From Pseudogymnoascus verrucosus (taxonomy: Eukaryota): DNA of 64,000 nt. This document shows positions 27,147-41,467 of this stretch, one piece after another. The notes under the pieces are model-generated. The model had not been told where the DNA came from. It saw nothing but the letters and a program-made list of their open reading frames with translations, and made no database searches. The stretch lies in the NCBI GenBank assembly GCA_001662655.1, contig KV460285.1, one strand, 5' to 3'. Positions within the stretch are counted from its first letter, which is position 1. Every line of letters begins with the position of its first letter. A program made the translations under genes and the position numbers.

Positions 27147-29645
27147 TTAATGCCACAGTACGCCATCGTCGCAGGCAAACTTGAGCCACGACCCTTGAAT
27201 ATCTTGATCCCCGAAATTCTGCATAGTAAAGTCCATCCCAAAACCAAGAGGGTCCTCAAAAATGTCAAGAGCATTATGAGAACCGGCTTCTACAGGCAGT
27301 GAAGCATTTGTCTCTGCCATTCTTGCGCTCATCAGGTTATAACAGAGCAGGGAGCTTTTCTTCGCAGCATCTAGGACCACTGGTTCTGGATCAACGCCCT
27401 TCTCTGTGGAATCCAGGAGAGACAGAGTAATAACAATGAGCAGGCGTACCATGACGTTGTTTTCTTCCAAGGTAACACGATCCACAGAGAGGTCCAATAA
27501 ATCCAGTAAGCATTGCTTCAGAGAATCTCTGTTATCCTTTGTTTGCTGTACCATTGCCGGGCCGTCTTCCTTAAGTTGTGTATGTAGTTCATGGAATATT
27601 ATCGTGCTTGTATATGTAATGATGCTTTTAAAGCCGCCGCCCACAATCTTGAGCTGTGCGTAATCGTCCCGAAACATATTATCCACCGATTGATTTGCCA
27701 GAAGAGGTTCTGATGAGGGGTACTTGAGTATGGTCACGGCTGATTCAAGGCATATTTTCCTAGAATAGTAGAAGCGTGGATCTTTCATTCCTTTGGCGGC
27801 GAAAGGGCGATGGAGAAGTAGCAAGGCGAGGCGTAAGGGAAGATCGACCATGTTGATGTTAAGCTGTGTGACTCTGTCTTGTGATTGTAGCGACTGATTG
27901 ACTCTTAAGATAAATGTTCTGTTATCTCTCAATGCTTTCATCAGCTCAGCTCCAACTCGAAGAACATCATCGTATAAAGGCTTATTGCCAATACTATTTG
28001 AACATCGAATGAATTCTAGTCGGGGCCCAATGGATTGAAGAAGCATAATCTGCAACGACGTTTGTGTAAGTGTACTGTTTGGTTTGGGGGTTACGGGGTT
28101 ATTTGTGGCCTCGCTAATATCGACATCGTCAATATTAGCTGGTGGTGCAGTATCCCACTCCTGCTCAGTCTGCCAGATGTTAGCGACTATTATGTATGTG
28201 CAAGCTTCTTAAACTTACAATCAAGAAAGGCATCCCCGAACCAATTGAAGACTGAATATTCAGCTCGATTATCGTTGCCCACAATCTTCTGCGCATTTCC
28301 CCCTGTAGTATTCCTATCTTTGGCAAACTTGCCGGGTCACGATGGAAACCCATTTGCATCGCCGTTCGTAGGAGCGTACCAGCCGCTATCCAGACGACAT
28401 CGCCTGATATCGAGCAATATTGGCGTGCTATAATCAATAGACATTGAATTTGGATTGTTGACATGTGAAGTTTCGCCTTCTCAAAAGGAGTAGATTGCCA
28501 GGATTGTGCGGCAAAGATCCATTTCTTTGATTCAACTCGGTAATGTGTAGAGTCAGGACCCTGATAAAAGCACCCGCCTATTGACATGACAAGCAAAAGC
28601 TTGACGATAAATACGGGATTTGATACGTCGGGCTGATCCCAATACTGCCGGTATTCCTTCATAAATGATGGAATGTGAAGGATTCGGTATATGGATTCAG
28701 AGGTTCTGAAGTATGCATTTACCAACTGATCCGCAACTCCCTTTACGGGAACAGCATCTCTGAAGCATGGATTCTAAATAGGAGTGGTAAGTTAACATAC
28801 ATTATACCCTAGGTGTTGTATGAGTGGCGTTGGAGGCAGTCAAGAGTGAAAGGAGGAGGTTGCAACTTACTGCGAGCCATTGAGAATACGGAATTGCCTT
28901 CATACTTTTGGCGAGGGCCTTGCATTTTTCCATACTCTCCGTAATATCATCGACTTGCTCCGAGGAAGCATCGGAACAGCCCGAGGGATGTCTGGTAGAC
29001 TTGGCAAATAGATAAGCTATGTCGTCAAACTGCGAAGGTCAGCTTAACTTCTAGACTTGGCAAATGATAACATACAGCTCCGTGCGAATACATCCAGTGA
29101 GTGCCTCCCAAAAATCGCGTCTTCGATATGATGCCACCTAGCCTTTTGGGAGCTGCATTTGGAACTGGAGGTGGTGGGTTAGTAGTTCCCTCTGACTTGG
29201 CAATAGCCAACTGTGCTTCAAGGTTACGGATGCGATCGAGCAGGTCTTTGTTACGGAGTGCTTCCTCCTGGTGGGATTCACCCGGCTCCACAACCGGCGA
29301 GCCATATGAGCTGGGGCGGGTGGTAGTAGAGAGATGGGTAGAGGTGGGTGACACGCCAACTAAAGATGCATGCGTGCTTGAGCTACTCGGGATACTCCGT
29401 GCTCGATTTGGAAGCCCCGTTGACGATTGTCTGGGGAAGGAAGCCGGCGGGAAGGCGCCGCGTGTGCGACGAGACACAGCTGGAAGGATGGCGCTATAGG
29501 TACAAGAAGCAATTTTTGACTGCACACATTGGCCACAAGGCTGATTACGGTCGCATTTGACCTTCCGCCGTCGGCATGGCTCACATGAAAGAGCTGGCCT
29601 TCTTCGCTTTTTCACAGATGACGCGGGACTGAGAGGTGCGGACAT
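27147..29645 (-). CDS. Zn(II)2Cys6 transcription factor (multi-exon)
   Basis: KRRRPALSCEPCRRRKVKCDRNQPCGQCVQSKIASCTY; KTRFLGGTHW; MGFHRDP, EMRRRLWATIIEL; LLLHRPF, FYYSRKICLE. Confidence 0.92.
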
Positions 29646-30370
29646 GGCGGGGATAAGGTCCTGGATTTGTGTTAGATGCAACCTCGAAATTTCTCGATAA
29701 ACGGTGGAATCCAGCAGCACTTACGGATGTAGCGGTCTTACACTAAGGGTACTCTTCAGGAAGGAGTGCTTTTGCCGCAAATTGTGTGACAAATGTGAAT
29801 TTCCCGATGATGAGGGATTGTCGGTGTTTAAAGGCAGTCCCTTCGGTCTTTTGGGGTTGTTTGGATGGCTAAGTCCGAGACAGGAAGATAATAAGCCGTG
29901 CGTTTATCTCCGTCCCCTGTGTTCTCAAACATCCTCGAAAAGTTTTAGCTATTCTACCCAACCAATATGTGGTGCTTTAAGAATTTAAGATTTGTATTGA
30001 ATCTCCAACCATCTTTGTAGCGACTAGATTTACCTTGAGGCAGATGGATGACTTGAACGAGCTTACGACGCGGTATACCCGTTTTCGGTTCGGGGATAAC
30101 GGCAAATTACACAACATGGCAGTGATCAATAATATAAGCAGTGAAAGGTTCCTCCAGTACTACTGTTCCACAAGCTCCAGTCAAAAGCAAACTGTTTCAT
30201 TATATTGGGAGGTTCGGGCCTGCCCTTGTGTTAAAAGACCTGTCGTTCGGGCGTTCCTGCCGTCTGTTTAAGTCAAAACATACTAATGTTATAAAATTCT
30301 ATTTACTTTAGTCTACATCGTCTACTATCGTTTCAATTACCACCCAAACGCCCATAATATCAAGCAAAAC

Positions 30371-31642
30371 ATGGCACCTATGAAAATCCTCGTCAGCGGT
30401 GGAGGCATTGCCGGCAATGCAGTAGCCTTTTGGCTGTCAAAGCTCGGTCACGAAGTCACCGTTGTCGAACGGTTCTCAAGCCTACGAATCACAGGACTCC
30501 AGATCGACCTCCGCCTCCACGGGATTGAGGTCTTGAAACGCATGGGTCTCGATGAGGCTTTCCGTGCCAACGCCGCTCCAGAGCAGGGCATTCAGGTAGT
30601 CGACAAGTCGGGCAGACGGCGCGGCTACTTCCCAGCGAATACGTCTGGCAAAGGAACTCAGAATTTCACTAGCGAGTATGAGATTATGAGAGGGGATCTT
30701 TGTCGTATTATGCACGATGTTACCAAGGATCGAGTCGAGTATATCTTCGGAACGTCGATCGAAAGCTTCGAGGAGACGGATGGCGCCGTTGAGGTTAGGT
30801 TTGCGGACGGCAAGACGGGAAGGTATGATCTCTTGATTGGTGCCGATGGCCAGGGATCGCGAACACGCAGGATGATGCTCGGACCCGGTGCCGCGGATCC
30901 GTTCGTCCCCATTGGCGATGGGGAATACATCGCATACTTCACTATCCCTCGGCCGATGCGTGAAGGGGAGGGGTACATGGCCACTTTCTACCTCGCTACC
31001 AGAAATAGATGGGTGTTGACTCGACGGAGCAATTCGAAGGAGATACAGGTCTACCTGGCCTGCAAGCTTGATGCAGGGAAACTCAGAACTGCTTATCAGG
31101 AAGGTGTCGAAGAGGAGAAGGCGGCCTTGGCAGAGGTTTTCAAAGGCGCTGGGTGGCAGCTGGATGAGATCTTGGAGTCTCTCAAAGACACCGACAACTT
31201 CTATGGCGATGAACTAGGTATTGTCAAGATGGAGTCTTGGTCGCGCGGCCGTGTAACTCTTCTTGGAGATGCCGGGTTTTGCCCGTCAGTAAATACGGGA
31301 ATGGGCACTACCAGTGCCATGGTGGGTGCTTATATCTTGGCTGGCGAGATTGGGAGACACTGTGGTGGAGATGCCAGTAAAGGAGGTGATACCAAAGATG
31401 GTATTGCGGCCGCGCTCAAGGCCTACGAGCAAAAGTTTCGCCCATTCATGAACCACGTACAAAAAGGAGTGGAGGAAAAGTCGAGCTTGGACTCATTCAC
31501 GTCAACATCGTTTGGAATTGCCGTCATCAATTGTCTCGTGGGGATAGCCTCTTTATTCAAGGTGAATATTGGGAAGTGGAGCCTGAAGGAGACTCTCGAG
31601 GGATGGGAACTCCCGGAGTATGAAGAGTTGGCACGGGATTAG
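30371..31642 (+). CDS. FAD-dependent monooxygenase/oxidoreductase (flavin hydroxylase type)
   Basis: 423 aa with GGGIAG Rossmann motif, LIGADG (DG motif) and LLGDAG...GMGTTSA (GD motif). Confidence 0.9.
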   Translation: MAPMKILVSGGGIAGNAVAFWLSKLGHEVTVVERFSSLRITGLQIDLRLHGIEVLKRMGLDEAFRANAAPEQGIQVVDKSGRRRGYFPANTSGKGTQNFTSEYEIMRGDLCRIMHDVTKDRVEYIFGTSIESFEETDGAVEVRFADGKTGRYDLLIGADGQGSRTRRMMLGPGAADPFVPIGDGEYIAYFTIPRPMREGEGYMATFYLATRNRWVLTRRSNSKEIQVYLACKLDAGKLRTAYQEGVEEEKAALAEVFKGAGWQLDEILESLKDTDNFYGDELGIVKMESWSRGRVTLLGDAGFCPSVNTGMGTTSAMVGAYILAGEIGRHCGGDASKGGDTKDGIAAALKAYEQKFRPFMNHVQKGVEEKSSLDSFTSTSFGIAVINCLVGIASLFKVNIGKWSLKETLEGWELPEYEELARD

Positions 31643-33877: not shown

Positions 33878-36800
33878 ATGCCTGGTTCTGATCGGCGCGA
33901 AGCCGTGCAAGTCGCGACGACCGTCACGATCGTCATTGCCTTTGTGTTCGTGGCACTACGGATGATAAGCCGGATATTTATCACGAGGCGTACAACCTTG
34001 GATGACTACGTGATGATACTCGCCTGGATAATTGCATTTGGAGGTTCTTTTACTATTCTACTTGCGGCACGAAAGGGGTTTGGCTTGATGGATGCAGAAC
34101 TCAAACCAGAGTGGATAACGACTTTGAAGAAATGCGGGTATATCTACAGTATTATTTATGTGTGTATATTCCTACTTATAATAGCATGGACCTCTAGCAG
34201 TGCAGAGCAGGAATGGAGTGGAATATGAGGGAAAGGGATCGAACTAACAATTATCAGAACCCAGCACTTATGGCTACCAAGACGAGCATCCTAATATTCT
34301 ACCTACGCCTTTCGAGGACGAATAAGCTGTTCCGGATTGGAACGTACGCAACAATGGGAGTGGTAAATGTGGTAGGCCTAATATTGACATTTATCAATGT
34401 TTTCCAGTGCCACCCACTCGACAAGATCTTCTCGGACTCTTTTGTTGATCCGACACAGAAGTGTATACCGTTAGTCACACTTTTTCTCGCCTCGTCGCCG
34501 GCTAATATCTTCACTGATCTTGCGATATTGGTACTTCCAATACCTGTTCTCACCGGTATGCATCTACCTATGAGACAGAAAACAATACTAGTCTTAACGT
34601 TCGGACTCGGAATATTTGTCACCATTGTCGACGTGATCCGAATCTATTACCTCCAGCAAGCCCTAGGACCTACAACTGCTAATTCCAGCTCACCACAAGG
34701 AACGCCCGGACTTGGTGCAAGTCCCAACTTTGTATTCAATGTATCGTACGGTCTAATGTGGTCGATTGTGGAGGTGAATGTCGGCATTATATGTGGTTGC
34801 ATCCCGCTACTGAAGCCATTGGTATCCAAGACAATGCCGAAGCTCATTAACCCTCCTGGGTTTCATGGTAGCCAGACATCGTCTCAAGTCTCAGCGACCC
34901 TGACAAGACCGGCGGAAATGCCCACGGATCGGGCCCCTGCCAGGCAGAACAACATAGAAGGGTTCACGCCCTTAAACTTTAGAATGCCGGGGACCCCTTT
35001 GCCGGAAATGTCGATGACGCCAGGTCCGAGTCTCGGGACGCCTATTCTACAGAATTCACATCGAACATCAGTATCATCCACCGGCGGAGTGGGCGAGGCG
35101 CCCTCGCAGTTGGCCTCACGACGAGTCTCGCTTTCGCCAGTCCATGAAGGCGGGTCGTCCATGCAGCAAACATCTCAAGAGCCTTCATTGCAGCCCTCAC
35201 AAGATCCACTTGATTCACCCGTCCTAGAGAGCAGTACCCCCATAGAGCAAACCGAGTCTTCAACTTCACCTTCAACCGAGCATGAGAACTTTTCTCCCAG
35301 GCGAAGGTACCCGCAACAGACAGCTCTTTCACAACAGAATGATGCCGACCACCAAGTACAGAACGATGCACAGCCAGCACAAGAAGGAATGTTCTCGCCA
35401 GAACAACAACAACATCAAGAAATGGACATGCTCAACTTTCTCACCTCGCCTGGGATGCCTCCAAGAACTGAATCCGGGCCTGACCGACCGAACCAAATCC
35501 ATTTTGGTTTTGTTAAAATCCGTCAGCCAAGATCTATGCTGCGCACTTCTGCAAAAGACTCGTGGAAATACTGTGCTTGGGTCTCAGTTTCTTTCTTCCT
35601 ATTAGGATTTTCTTACGGGCTACTCAACACACTCAACGTCCAAATATCTCTGATCGCACGTTATACGCGAGCACTGACCGTATCTCTGCACACAATGTAT
35701 TTTGCCGGATATTTCTTCGGCCCCTTAACGGTTGGGTTGTACTGCCTGAGAAGGGGTGGGTTTAAGGTGACATTCATGGTCGGTCTTTGCATCCTTGGAA
35801 CTGGGACTCTCGTTTTCTGGCCTTCCTCCATCCTTCTTACATATCCGGGCTTTATCATTTCCAATTTTATCATTGGATTTGGCTTGTCTGTTTTCGAGAC
35901 CACCGCGAATGCCTTTGTCCTCCTCTGCGGCCCGCCACGCTACGGCGAGTCTCGCCTTCTAGCAGTTCAATTCGTTCAGAGTATCGGTGCAATTGTCAGC
36001 CAGCTCCTGGTTGAGAAGGCTTTTTTTCCCTCTAATGAAGTTCACAATAACGTCCTTAGTATACGGTGGACATATCTTACTATTTCCTTCATCACAGTCA
36101 TCATCGCCCTTGTTTTTCACTACACGCCACTACCAGAGGCGAGCGATGAGGACCTCCAAGACTCTCTCCAGCCCCAGCTTTTACCACTTAATCGCGTTAT
36201 TAACGACGATCCTAGTAATCGCATTTTTGGCTTTCGAGTTGTCTATATAAGCCTCGCCTTCGCCTGCTTCACCATGTTCTGCTATATGTTCTCCCAGGAG
36301 AGTTTCAATGTTTGGTTCAACAATTCACTCCTCTCCTCCACCAACGTAATAGACGGTACCCACCGGCGCCAGTTACTATCCCCGAATTTTGTTCTCTATG
36401 GGCATTGTGCATTCTCAGGGTCGTTGCTATTGGCCTCGGCATTGTGTCTCTACGTGCGGCCGCGCATCATCCTACTCGGAGCCCTCTTAGGCAGTGCAAC
36501 ATTTAGGTTGGCGTTCATTCTGATTCCAGCTGAGCTGGAGAAGAAAAACAGTTCGAAGATTGCGGGACTGGCCGTAGCAGAATATTTCTGTGAGGCCCCC
36601 ATATATGCAATTATTGTGGGGCTGGCGCTGAGGGGCCTCGGCGCGAAAACAAAGCTCGGTAGTGCGTTGGTTATTACTATGAACATAGGAGGGGCGGCGG
36701 GACCATGGGTCGTTCTTGGGGTTATTAAGGGGATGGGGAATACTCGGAGGCCATTTGTTGTTGGGGTTGCTTTCTTGTTCTTCGTATCACTTTATCCACT

Positions 36801-37077
36801 GTATCTGTCTGTGGTGCCGAAGGCTAGGGCGATTGTAGATTGGCCTGATGACGGCGAAGCTGGAAGCGAGAGGAGGGTGAGCCAGTCTGACTCGATGGCG
36901 GCCGTGGAGGCTGCGAATGCGGGAGTGTATAGTAGTAGGCATCATGGGATGCATTGGCCTGCTCTTGTGGAGAAAGAGTTTGCGCATATTAGGAGAGCGA
37001 GTTCCACGAGCGGGAAGGCCGTGAGCAAATGGGCTGGCAGTGTCAGGGACTGGACGAGGAGAGTCAGCGGGTTGTAG
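33878..37077 (+). CDS. Fusion protein: Pth11-like 7TM receptor domain + S/P/Q-rich linker + FucP/GGP-family MFS domain (1033 aa)
   Basis: Exons 33878-34159 and 34258-37077. Pth11-like motifs: VALRMISR, LDDY, NPALMATKTSIL, QCHP, TDLAILVLPIP, WSIVEVNVGIICGCIPLLKP. FucP-like motifs: GFSYGLLNTLN, GFKVTFMVGL, FETTANAF, LPEASDEDL, LRGLGAKTK. Both domains lie in one uninterrupted frame. Confidence 0.88.
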
Positions 37078-37539: not shown

Positions 37540-39468
37540 TTACTCCCTAACCTCCTTAATCGGCCCCAAATACGTCGTCTTGCCATAAGCATACCAGGCC
37601 ACCGCACTGAAAATAAACGTTCCCCCGTACACAACACTCGTATAATTCATATTCACAGCCGTCACTGGAACAAACGCGGGAAAGAACATCCAAATCGACA
37701 CAAACAACGCGTACACCAGAGAGAATATGTTAAGGGGCATACCCCATCTCCCGAGGTGCCACGGGCCAAAGGGGATTTCATCCCCTGAGAGCCGACGTAC
37801 CACGAGAAGTGCAATTGGGACGATGTAGGTGGAGTACAAGGCCACGGTTGCAAGGCCGGTGATGGCATAGAAGGCGGCCGTGGAGGCGATATTGATTAAG
37901 CCAAGGACGAGTAGGGTGGCGGCGGTGAGGATAATAGATCGGATGGGGATGTGGCGCGTGCTGTGAACCTGGGACGTGTTAGTTTCAGCGAAGCGCAGGA
38001 AAATTGATACTTACGTGCGCAAAGTAGGTCGAGTAAGGCAATCCGTTGTCTCGGCAGAATGCCCAAGTCATACGCGAGGCGGCGGAGAGAAGACCCCAGG
38101 TGGATGTTACGGCCGAAAAGACAATGCCACACACCATCAGGGTTGCGGCCAACTTCGAACTCGTCGCGAAGTAGAATATTTCGATAATTGGGAATCCCGT
38201 GGGGGTCGAGAGGGCGGCGTTGATATCCCCCATGCTGAATAAGAGCGCAATTAGGAAGCCGAAACCGAGAGAGCCATTGAGCACTATACTTGTGATCATG
38301 GCGCGCGGAACGACGGTTGTTGCGTTTTCAATTTCCTCGCTCATGTGCCACGCACCGTCAAAACCTGACTCGGATATGAGACATTGTAACATTAACACAG
38401 GAATTTCGACTTACCAGTAAATGGAAAGGCGCTTGTGAGAAGGCCAACACACCAAGACACGCCATCGCTACTCCAACCTCCTTTGTTCTCAAAATCCGTG
38501 AAGACCCACTCAGCTGAATGTTGCGGTGCAAGACACACCATCGGGATTAAAAGGAGAAACCAGAGCCCTATATGCATCAAGAGAATGATGCTTTCTAGGT
38601 GAGGTAGAATCTTGATGCCAAAGATGTTCACGACGACTGCTGAAGTGACAATCGCAGTATAGAGCAGAGTGCCATGCCATCGCTCGTATACATATGTGTC
38701 GTCGTTTAGGACTAGGAGACCTTGAATCAAAGTCCCGCCGAGGAAGGCTGGTGCCGCCGTAGCAGCTAGCCATGCAAGGACTGAGGCCCATCCTGCGGTG
38801 TGTTAGAATGTTGTACGGCACGACTTTCATGGATGTCTTACCAGTGTACCACCCCAACAATATGGAGTACTTGCGCGGTGCCAGCTGCGCAACCCAGTGA
38901 TACTGCCCTCCAGACGTTGGACTCCTGTTGTGCAAAATTGATTAGAGACAATTGGCCAAACTTTTAAGACATGGCTGGCTTACATTGATGCCATCTCACC
39001 CAGCGACGCACAAGTCGCGAGCGTACCGAAGAAACAGAGAATGAAGCCATATACCAGCGACACGGGACCGCCATTGAGGAGTCCTCCTTGCAGTAAGCTG
39101 TGCTTGGATTAGCCTTTAGCTTGCAGTTGTATGAGGATTACCAACGCTGATAATGGTTCCCATGTAGCCATCAATGTGCTTGAGAACCCCTGGATGCGCG
39201 GTCAGCGCTGTGGCTATCGACTCTGGTATCACTCTGAGGCTGTTCGCACCACCATGGATATGAAGCCAAAGTTCCGCTACTGCTATTAGCTGTATGTCCC
39301 CACCAGTTCATAGCGCCGGAAGCTTACCTTCAGCGCCTGCTTCTTCCCCAAGTTTGCAAGAACCGCTCGGTCACGGCTGCCATAAGAGTACTCCTCGTCA
39401 TCGTTCTTGACCTCGCCCGAGCCGTTCCTGCTGGGCCGGCGCCCTGTCATCTCGAATTCCATAGTCAT
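37540..39468 (-). CDS. APC-superfamily amino acid/choline/GABA permease (many introns)
   Basis: Spliced motifs RNFGFISM, LLNGGP, EMAS..PTSGGQYHWV, GFDGAWHMSEE, SRMTWAFCRDNGLP, MNYTSVV. Confidence 0.9.
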
Positions 39469-40160
39469 GTTTGAAATATAGAGATGTCGATGTCTTTGAA
39501 ATAGCAGATGGCCTCAAACACTAATATGCTTGAGGTGCCATGAGAAATGGGCTCCCTTTGGGGGATATTTGAAGATGAGAGTTGAGCGGGCAAAATCCGG
39601 CACGCGGGGAGCCGGCATTCGAGACAAAACATGATAGAACAGGCACCATACAGTGCATTGGCAGATGCAGGTTCCATTAAAGTGCTCTGCCCCATTGCAC
39701 TGTGCATCCTACCCAGTAGCACAGGTGCAGAGGGCCGCCGGGTGTGATTGAGAAACACTCCTGGATGTGATCAGTACTTTTTCTATTTGGGTAATTTGTC
39801 ACTACTGGCTGATTACACCGAGCCCCCGAAACGAACCCCCGACCAGGGACCTTTTTTGGGGGCTATCAGATTCACAGCGCGCCAAAAGAAATCATGCCAT
39901 GTCGCATGGGAGTGGGTGGTTGCAGCGGACAAGGGTGCCCTATAATACCCAGCACATGCGGAATCCCAGAATGGGCGGCCAGGGGCGAGGGGGAGTGACT
40001 GGCCTGGTCGCCGACCCCTCTGATATTGATAATGACGGACTCAGTGTTATGTTCATTACTTACTTGGTGCTGGCATCGCCCTCATTACTGTATTTTTATT
40101 CTTCACTGTGGCATCTGGAAATTTTCACCGTGTATGCTTAATTGTTAATTCGTTTTCACG

Positions 40161-41467
40161 ATGAGCGAAGAGTCAGATCCAAACCCGCTGGCGGCCTTGT
40201 CACCTCCGCATTGGGTGATTAGCGATACTGATCATGGTGGATATGTGGTTATAGCAAACTGGACGATGATGTGTTTTATGGTTATCACAGTCATTGTCCG
40301 CCTGCTCAGGAAGTTATCCATCAGGTCATGGAGCCTTGATGATAATCTGATTGCAGCTGCTGGTGTAAAGAAGCCCTCTACTCAAGTTTGCCTCCCCAGA
40401 CCAAACTGACAACAACATAGGCATTTGGACTGATACAATGCGGCATACTTCATAAAGCAGTCCTAGCTGGTCTTGGACGCCACGAATCAAGCCTACTCGA
40501 CGGCGAGATAGATATGTACAACAAATATAACTACACATACCAGATTCTATTTATCATAACGACCGTCCTGGCCAAGATGTCGCTGCTCCTTTTCATCACA
40601 AGATTGACACCAAACGTGGCCACAATTAGAGTGGGAAGGATCATTCTATGCCTCATTGCTACATGGGGAGTTGCGACTGTCATTGCATTTGCATTCCAGT
40701 GCTCCTTGCCACAACCATGGAACAACATCTCTGGTGTCTGCAAAAACCAGGCTGCACTATACTACGCTGCCGGAATCATTGATATCATCACAGACATCGC
40801 CCTTACCATTCTGCCAGTTGTCATCCTCTGGGGTGTCCAGATCCAGCGAAGAAAGAGGGCGATAGTGATGCTGGTGTTCATGGCCAGAATGCTGTGGGTT
40901 ATTTAGGCGCCTAGCTTGAGGGAGCAACAGCTAACCAGACTCCACAGTGTATGCCTTGCAGAGATCCCGCGATTGATCTATTTGTCGCGATACATTGGAT
41001 CTACTGACAAACCCTGGTACGGCGCCAATGTGGCAATTTGGACACAGTAAGAAACCCCCCCACCAAAGATCCACCCCTATTTCGCTGACACCAGTCCTCC
41101 ACGTAGGGCAGTTACGCACCTCAGCATTGTCACAGCTTGTATTCCCAGCCTACAGCACCTTTTGGCGAGCATGCAATCCGGCGTCTTCAACACGGCCCTC
41201 CCAGCTGGCTTTGAGGGTGGGCTCTCCTACACGCTTGAGTCTACTGGTAGTGGAGGCATGTCACGCGAACTATACGGCTCAAAGAGGGTCGGGACAACGC
41301 GCACAACGGTCGAGTCTGGCACACAGCCACCGCGATCGGAGAGCAAGACGCGCCTGGTAGTGGATGGGGGCATTTACAAAACAACGGAGTTCGTGCTGAA
41401 CAACGTAGACAACGATCAAGATAGCGGAGCGCGGAAGCGGGGCCCGCCGGCGGGACGCACCGGCTGA
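40161..41467 (+). CDS. Pth11-like integral membrane protein (no CFEM domain), 4 exons
   Basis: DHGGYVVI, SLDD, GLGRH, LAKMSLL, FQCSLPQPW, DIITDIALTILP, WTQ...SIVTACIP after removing introns near 40365-40400, 40894-40947 and 41047-41107. Confidence 0.85.

Follow-up and report, generated by a model that had tools for sequence, protein, structure and literature searches.

Asparagine in place of the FucP proton-site aspartate in a fungal PTH11-like/permease fusion: an apparently relaxed site that hints at a sensing role

A two-exon gene of Pseudogymnoascus verrucosus, located in the 64,000-nucleotide stretch of contig KV460285.1 analysed here (the window), encodes a PTH11-like seven-helix (7TM) domain fused to a complete 12-helix permease of the FucP type. 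The first helix of the permease carries an Asn where the Escherichia coli L-fucose:H+ symporter FucP has Asp46, its proton-coupling residue. The original prediction took this change as a sign of a binding or uncoupled module, and therefore of a sensor. Our analysis bears out the substitution, and we tentatively favour, at slightly less than even chances, the reading that the MFS half is an uncoupled ligand-binding (input) module of a receptor–permease chimera, packed on the PTH11-like 7TM domain. The Asp46 change hints at such a role without proving one; better grounds for a sensing function come from the fusion as such, from the relaxed variation at position 46 and from the way in which the two domains are predicted to pack.

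RESULTS

Architecture of the fusion

The spliced translation of the gene (Table 1) is the database protein P0003, a P. verrucosus hypothetical protein of 1033 aa. As the remainder of the 7TM domain, the linker and the MFS domain sit in the single open frame of exon 2, the fusion is not an artefact of the gene model. Contigs from sequencing runs cover parts of the gene in three runs, one of which has a contig spanning the entire stretch as well as a second, more distant contig that covers it piecewise; among the runs listed, none containing the gene is an RNA run.

Table 1. Coordinates of the gene, its domains and the residues discussed (window numbering)
Feature	Position	Strand	Remarks
Exon 1	33878..34159	+	94 codons, encoding the first PTH11-like 7TM helices; PF20684 E=1.6e-7
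Phase-0 GT..AG intron, 98 nt	34160..34257	+	read from the sequence; confirmed by splice check
Exon 2	34258..37077	+	rest of 7TM, linker, entire MFS domain; 939 aa without stop; PF20684 E=3.1e-45, PF07690 E=3.6e-8
PTH11-like (Fung_rhodopsin) seven-helix domain, aa 7-291	33896..34848, intron inside	+	PF20684; helices in AlphaFold model
Ser/Pro/Gln-rich disordered linker, aa 298-494	34867..35457	+	pLDDT <50; ends in conserved short motif EMDMLNFLTSPG
FucP/FHS-type 12-helix MFS domain, aa 526-954	35551..36837	+	TIGR00885, 3O7Q, Foldseek, VIA
L543 = FucP Trp38, lost in orthologue group	35602..35604	+	Leu in 14/15 orthologues; Trp in 104/120 near matches, 119/119 stand-alones
N551 = FucP Asp46 (TM1 H+ site), AAC, within FFLLGFSYGLLNTLN	35626..35628	+	pairwise and 240-sequence alignments
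E641 = FucP Glu135 (TM4), GAG, within FETTAN, kept	35896..35898	+	Glu in 119/120 near matches, 119/119 stand-alones
E775 = FucP Thr275 (TM7), fusion-specific new acid (QE vs QV in stand-alones)	36298..36300	+	alignment
H810 = FucP Met305 (TM8)	36403..36405	+	His 83, Arg 14 of 120 near fusions; Gln 117 of 119 stand-alones; top covarying column 275
L817 = FucP Arg312 (TM8), lost in orthologue group	36424..36426	+	Leu 14, Met 1 of 15 orthologues; Arg in 104/120 near matches, 117/119 stand-alones
E873 = FucP Met361 (TM10), common to most fungal FHS proteins, fused or not	36592..36594	+	Glu in 110/120 near matches, 116/119 stand-alones

The N-terminal domain is a PTH11-like 7TM member, the PF20684 profile matching over its seven helices. 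Its residues K102, D181, R222, W262 and E266 are kept in 73–76 of the 76 full-length fusions aligned. With respect to the PTH11 motifs LxxxR, DD and GxH/D (PMC5526305), R32 and D43 are kept and the His of the third is replaced by Met (His in 43 of the 76 fusions); the 7TM motif GxGRHD reads GFGLMD in the window protein. From its topology, the linker that follows would be cytoplasmic. The pattern of the MMDFLTxP-like motif at its end (35419–35454) is found in 47 of the 76 full-length fusions, and a second conserved motif, YFGFVxMxxPxSML, stands before TM1 at 35497–35541. Both mark members of the fusion family, and the pair could serve in signalling or as an interdomain contact.

The MFS half belongs by descent to the FHS family (TC 2.A.1.7), in sequence as well as in fold. 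Its best PDB sequence match is 3O7Q (E=8.4e-16), 3o7p and 3o7q occupy the first two Foldseek ranks, and the VIA structural alignment of the model with FucP gives Z 37.2 and an rmsd of 3.3 over 381 aligned residues, tied with NorA (37.0). The TIGR00885 match (E=1.4e-24, 87 bits) lies under the curated cut-off of 280.4, so that the domain does not score as a FucP equivalog; with regard to the residues expected of one, Asp46 in TM1 is replaced by N551 and Glu135 in TM4 is present as E641.

A second PTH11-like gene, with no MFS domain, lies ~3 kb downstream (40149–41467, plus strand; PF20684 E=1.1e-25). The other neighbours in the window, an amino-acid permease, an FAD-dependent oxidoreductase and a Zn2Cys6 factor (37540–39513, minus; 30287–31642, plus; 27147–29720, minus), give no hint of a ligand.

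Asn551 occupies the position of FucP Asp46

The original prediction placed the TM1 Asn on Asp46 and held the TM4 Glu of FETTAN to be retained, and both assignments stand. N551 falls on Asp46 in the pairwise alignment to 3O7Q, where the local posterior confidence is low, and does so again, with E641 on Glu135, in a 240-sequence alignment including FucP of E. coli K-12 from the annotated genome. The structural alignment begins with model residue 527 on FucP residue 22, an offset that likewise puts 551 on 46, provided that the helix contains no gap. The role given to Asp46 in the original prediction agrees with passages of PMC8784342, of PMC4882079, which lists it as the putative H+ site, and of PMC3824880, which cites the structure work of 2010.

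The Asn is shared by close relatives. Among the best 120 of 1070 matches to the window protein (the near set, 119 of them annotated PF20684), 117 carry Asn at position 46, and the remaining three have Asp, Gln and Ser, respectively. As a fungal stand-alone set we took the 120 matches to a stand-alone paralogue, less one multidomain protein of 986 aa; these 119 proteins, mostly 73–98% identical to the query and hence a dense sample of a single clade, all have Asp. The prediction that stand-alone homologues keep the Asp was therefore correct; of the stand-alone paralogues in the same genome, two have the GLLDVLN that it named and the third has GLLDTLN. The Asn is not a chance event, given 117 of the 120 best matches against Asp in 119 of 119 stand-alones. 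Asp is likewise present in every one of the 53 bacterial FucP sequences obtained from 57 loci and in all 14 tree sequences outside the fusion clade, FucP among them. Within the P. verrucosus genome, four of four fusions (L001–L004) have Asn and three of three stand-alones have Asp. The fungal stand-alone homologues would presumably be H+-coupled. Some 'stand-alone' representatives with Asn were considered as counter-examples and rejected, since many start just before TM1 or carry the fusion linker motifs upstream and are probably truncated gene calls; one such candidate, P0257, has a cluster mate of 957 aa.

Position 46 varies across the fusion family

The expectation that the Asn would be conserved across fusion orthologues holds for the close relatives and fails for the family. 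When the best 150 representatives at 50% identity were taken, those that had a 7TM match and whose TM1 could be read (n=77) showed Asn 31, Asp 15, Gly 12, Ser 8, Thr 5, Phe 3, Leu 2 and Ala 1. A tree of 134 MFS domains, built with columns 46 and 275 left out and rooted on FucP, contains a fusion clade of 120 sequences with a support of only 0.63. Eleven different residues occur at position 46 in this clade (Asn 47, Asp 26, Gly 16, Ser 12, Thr 8, others 11), with at least 16 changes between Asp and non-Asp. The window gene falls within a subclade of 45 members (support 0.998), 33 of them with Asn, and Asp-bearing fusions with a named source belong to Penicillium, Aspergillus, Trichodelitschia, Rhizina and Choiromyces. 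Metagenome DNA gave 79 loci; in 69 of these both domains were present and TM1 could be read, with Asp (35) beside Asn (28) and others (6), and the 41 distinct TM1 strings comprise 22 with Asn and 13 with Asp. TM1 of the MFS domain and part of the 7TM domain share one open frame in 68 of these 69 loci. Asn is therefore a trait of the window gene's clade, and the trait of the family is free variation at a relaxed site.

The fusion is also found in Tremellomycetes (P0281, P0325, P0294, P0306 and P0280), namely in Kwoniella, Cryptococcus depauperatus, Cryptotrichosporon and a Tremellales sp. These sequences fall in a 15-member clade (support 1.0) whose members have Gly, Ser or Asn at this position and which is nested among ascomycete sequences. 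PTH11-like proteins are called exclusive to Pezizomycotina in passages of PMC1088943, PMC5526305 and PMC12842992. A horizontal transfer of the fusion to Tremellomycetes is possible.

A new Glu in TM7 is the steadier signature of the fusions

Glu at position 275 (E775) is found in 115 of the 120 near matches and in none of the 119 stand-alones, and it recurs in 81 of 108 diverse clade members and in all 64 metagenome loci in which both sites were read. This Glu rather than Asn46 is the steadier signature of the fusion. The TM7 Glu was gained before the losses of Asp46, because 22 of the 24 Asp46-bearing clade members already have it. H810, in TM8, is a possible partner of E775. At position 361, the site of E873, bacterial FucP sequences have Met (52 of 53). 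The core helices of the window protein thereby hold three acids (E641, E775 and E873) as against two in E. coli FucP, and H+ coupling could have been relocated to E775 and E873 rather than lost.

The residues E135, Q159, Q162, Y270, Q274 and R312 are conserved in most fusions. In a covariation test of 196 sequences (~70 effective), position 275 covaries best with 274, 271, 308, 38, 162, 270, 278 and 42, and position 46 has no strong partner (best 0.15). The columns covarying with 275 presumably line the sugar cavity of FucP. The signal may come from shared decay in a few lineages.

The window copy is a remodelled paralogue

The orthologue group of the window gene (n=15) departs from its relatives well beyond the two substitutions W38L and R312L. 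Of 133 positions with at least 90% conservation across the 105 other near fusions, its members depart at 30–36, against a median of 2 in those fusions, and 25 of these positions are departed from in at least 13 of the 15 orthologues. Such sharing has the look of a shift that came early and was retained. Six of the 15 have lost Q159 or Q162; E135, Y270, Q274 and E275 are kept in the window protein. The frame is intact in 14 of 14 near-full-length members, and in four orthologues compared the N-half of the MFS domain is 84–93% identical and the linker 63–86%. The window copy is best seen as a remodelled paralogue, with L002 as the canonical copy in the same genome. Given W38L and R312L, its ligand probably differs from that of the family. 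With so many departures, Q159 or Q162 among them in some members, it may bind poorly or not at all.

The four fusion copies (L001–L004) differ in their substrate-site losses. L003 has no acid at 46, 275 or 361 and keeps W38, E135, Q159, Q162, Y270, Q274 and R312, and L004 lacks E361. L004 has a Gpr1-like receptor gene fragment on one side and an RGS-domain gene on the other (G000:C52, ~134.8–144.2 kb; L086:5304–6747 and L087:2706–3809). These were rejected as conserved neighbours of the fusions, as neither has a tblastn match in the 79 metagenome loci, 37 of which exceed 9 kb. Just upstream of L002 is a sugar-porter gene (L083:807–2060, minus strand); a sugar-porter-like neighbour matches 9 of the 79 metagenome loci, but several of these are near-identical and the family is too common for a link to be drawn. 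Twenty recurring neighbour ORFs of the metagenome fusion loci include no glycosidase or other hint of a ligand.

The two domains are predicted to pack together

AlphaFold models were made of the window protein and of an Asp-bearing homologue (909 aa, 38% identity), with the same 76 full-length fusion sequences as the alignment. The model of the window protein shows seven helices joined by a disordered linker to the 12 helices of the MFS domain; its pTM is 0.74, and its pLDDT is below 50 at 244 of 1033 residues. The homologue has a pTM of 0.80. By a rough, uncontrolled estimate, a pTM of 0.47–0.57 is expected for domains placed independently and 0.69–0.81 for domains placed as one body. The models predict a 7TM–MFS interface insofar as both values fall in the one-body range, which suggests that the two domains are packed as one rigid body. 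A complex prediction for the 7TM (aa 10–292) and MFS (aa 505–960) parts, in which alignments were unused, scored 0.02 and is evidence neither way.

DISCUSSION

The replacement of Asp46 by Asn predicts, by analogy with FucP, a loss of coupling at that site. The FucP D46N mutant does not translocate protons and retains a specific response to L-fucose (PMC8784342, in excerpt), which speaks for the favoured uncoupled module. We propose that an ancestral FHS permease became fused to a PTH11-like 7TM domain and then gained the TM7 Glu in or beside its substrate site. The H+ switch at Asp46 would have been freed from selection and lost repeatedly, Asn becoming usual in the clade of the window gene. 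The MFS domain would bind a sugar-like ligand from outside with no H+-driven accumulation, any transport being limited to exchange or slow facilitation, and would relay its conformational change to the 7TM domain packed against it. The fusion, the residue states and their distribution are established by the sequences and the packing is a prediction, whereas ligand binding, the absence of H+ coupling and signalling by the fusion are what we infer. Position 46 is invariant in the stand-alones yet has 11 residues and at least 16 changes in the fusion clade, and most site residues stay conserved in the fusions while 46 has no strong partner and 275 covaries with site columns. L003, deprived of the acids at 46, 275 and 361 with its other site residues kept, fits a protein with no spare H+ carrier. 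The division of the genome into Asn-bearing fusions and Asp-bearing stand-alones, the pTM values in the one-body range and the frame shared in nearly all metagenome loci point in the same direction.

Against this reading stand the many fusions that keep Asp46, in the clade (26/120), the metagenome loci (35/69) and the distinct TM1 strings (13/41) alike. Moreover, E775 is more conserved than the Asn, and E641, E775 and E873 together could carry protons. A loss of H+ coupling is thus unproven. Of the original prediction, the residue assignments and their distribution in stand-alones and close orthologues stand, but the step from Asp-to-Asn to an uncoupled module and a sensor is only partly supported, in view of the Asp-bearing fusions, the extra acids and the fact that Asn is the usual state of a uniporter. 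The many departures in the orthologue group of the window gene also count against it.

The protein would still be an H+ symporter if the site had merely moved, with E775, H810 and E873 taking over and Asp46 then becoming redundant. We consider this unlikely, even though Glu275 arose at the root of the fusion clade with Asp46 still in place, which is the order expected of a hand-over. The presence of Glu275 in every metagenome locus read and the His or Arg that most near fusions have at position 305 would also fit, as would the commonest weighted pattern, which has no acid at 46 and acids at 135, 275 and 361 (25.8 of 69.5). However, Glu275 is missing in 27 of 108 diverse clade members, L003 has none of D46, E275 and E361, L004 lacks E361, and position 275 covaries with substrate-site columns and not with 46.

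Another possibility, with similarly low odds, would be that the MFS half is a facilitator (uniporter) concerned mainly with transport, and that its 7TM partner serves in regulation, trafficking or stabilisation and not as the output for a signal. Since most GLUT uniporters have a neutral H+ site (PMC5770559, in excerpt), Asp-to-Asn by itself cannot separate a sensor from a facilitator. The same acidic-to-Asn change at the TM1 H+ site distinguishes the GLUT uniporters from the XylE and GlcP symporters; these belong to a different MFS family, and the change there goes with facilitated transport, not with sensing. The full 12-helix fold is retained, and the stand-alone fungal FHS protein RhtA of Aspergillus niger transports L-rhamnose (PMC5161314). 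On the other hand, engineered Asp-to-Asn versions of FucP, XylE and GlcP are exchange-only and not true uniporters (PMC5770559), three Asp-bearing stand-alone permeases are available in the same genome, and the polar core of the 7TM domain is nearly invariant across the fusions.

Least probable, in our view, is that the MFS half of the window copy no longer binds sugar and is a scaffold for the 7TM domain or an eroding duplicate with an Asn inherited from its clade: the fixation of W38L and R312L in the orthologue group, its 30–36 departures, the loss of Q159 or Q162 in some members, the change of GxGRHD to GFGLMD and the canonical site of L002 would be in keeping with it, but the frame is intact throughout the near-full-length orthologues, the N-half of the MFS domain is more conserved than the linker, E135, Y270, Q274 and E275 are kept and 25 departures are common to at least 13 of the 15.

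Use of the MFS fold in sensing has precedents in fungal transceptors and in the non-transporting glucose sensors Snf3 and Rgt2 of yeast, which are members of the sugar-porter family, signal through a soluble tail and have no fused seven-helix domain. The window MFS domain resembles FucP (3O7Q/3O7P) in its 12-helix fold and in the equivalents of E135, Q159, Y270 and Q274, and differs in the Asn at 46, the Leu residues in place of Trp38 and Arg312, the new acids at 275 and 361, an identity of only ~22% and the fusion to a 7TM domain. RhtA, according to its authors the first validated eukaryotic FHS member, is a stand-alone fungal protein of the same MFS family; no 7TM domain is mentioned in the excerpts of PMC5161314, and those passages neither show H+ coupling nor contain the term 'CCCP'.

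For PTH11-like proteins, excerpts of PMC1088943, PMC5526305 and PMC12842992 describe no C-terminal MFS domain such as that of the window protein. A description of the PTH11-like/MFS fusion was not found in the literature covered, which included excerpts of these three papers and of PMC4683645, PMC3576715, PMC10481521 and PMC11384713, with supplements and subscription journals outside its scope. Database annotations already place both Pfam domains on fusion proteins. The 2025 GPCR survey kept proteins of 6–7 helices only, according to its excerpts, and such a filter would exclude these fusions. Magnaporthe Pams1 was considered as a published member and rejected, since the MFS protein reported under that name has 14 helices and an N-terminus specific to its genus.

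A bolder form of the proposal, which we hold to be doubtful, is that the fusions constitute a widespread fungal receptor family of ~19 helices. A de-coupled FHS permease would be the ligand domain and drive the PTH11-like receptor by direct helix packing, the TM7 Glu would re-tune specificity, and Asp46 would have been lost many times independently. Speculatively, the TM7 Glu might shift specificity toward an amino or otherwise cationic sugar; in the window copy, the further loss of Arg312 would leave three acids and one His.

To conclude, a single Asp-to-Asn substitution is an ordinary event among MFS proteins and should not serve as a marker of sensing; it is the surrounding pattern, with the relaxed Asp46, the new Glu275 and the predicted packing, that makes this receptor–permease family directly testable. 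The natural series at position 46 (Asp, Asn, Gly and Ser, with or without E275 and E361) offers a view of how H+ symporters lose or relocate their coupling. Among the GPCRs predicted in fungi, the PTH11-like proteins form the largest class, with functions largely unknown (PMC12842992 and PMC5526305, in excerpt), and for a member with its own permease-type domain, ligand and activation can be tested by standard transport and binding assays. If the bolder form of the proposal is true, the largely orphan PTH11 family would gain a tractable ligand input, and a symporter would have been turned into a receptor domain.
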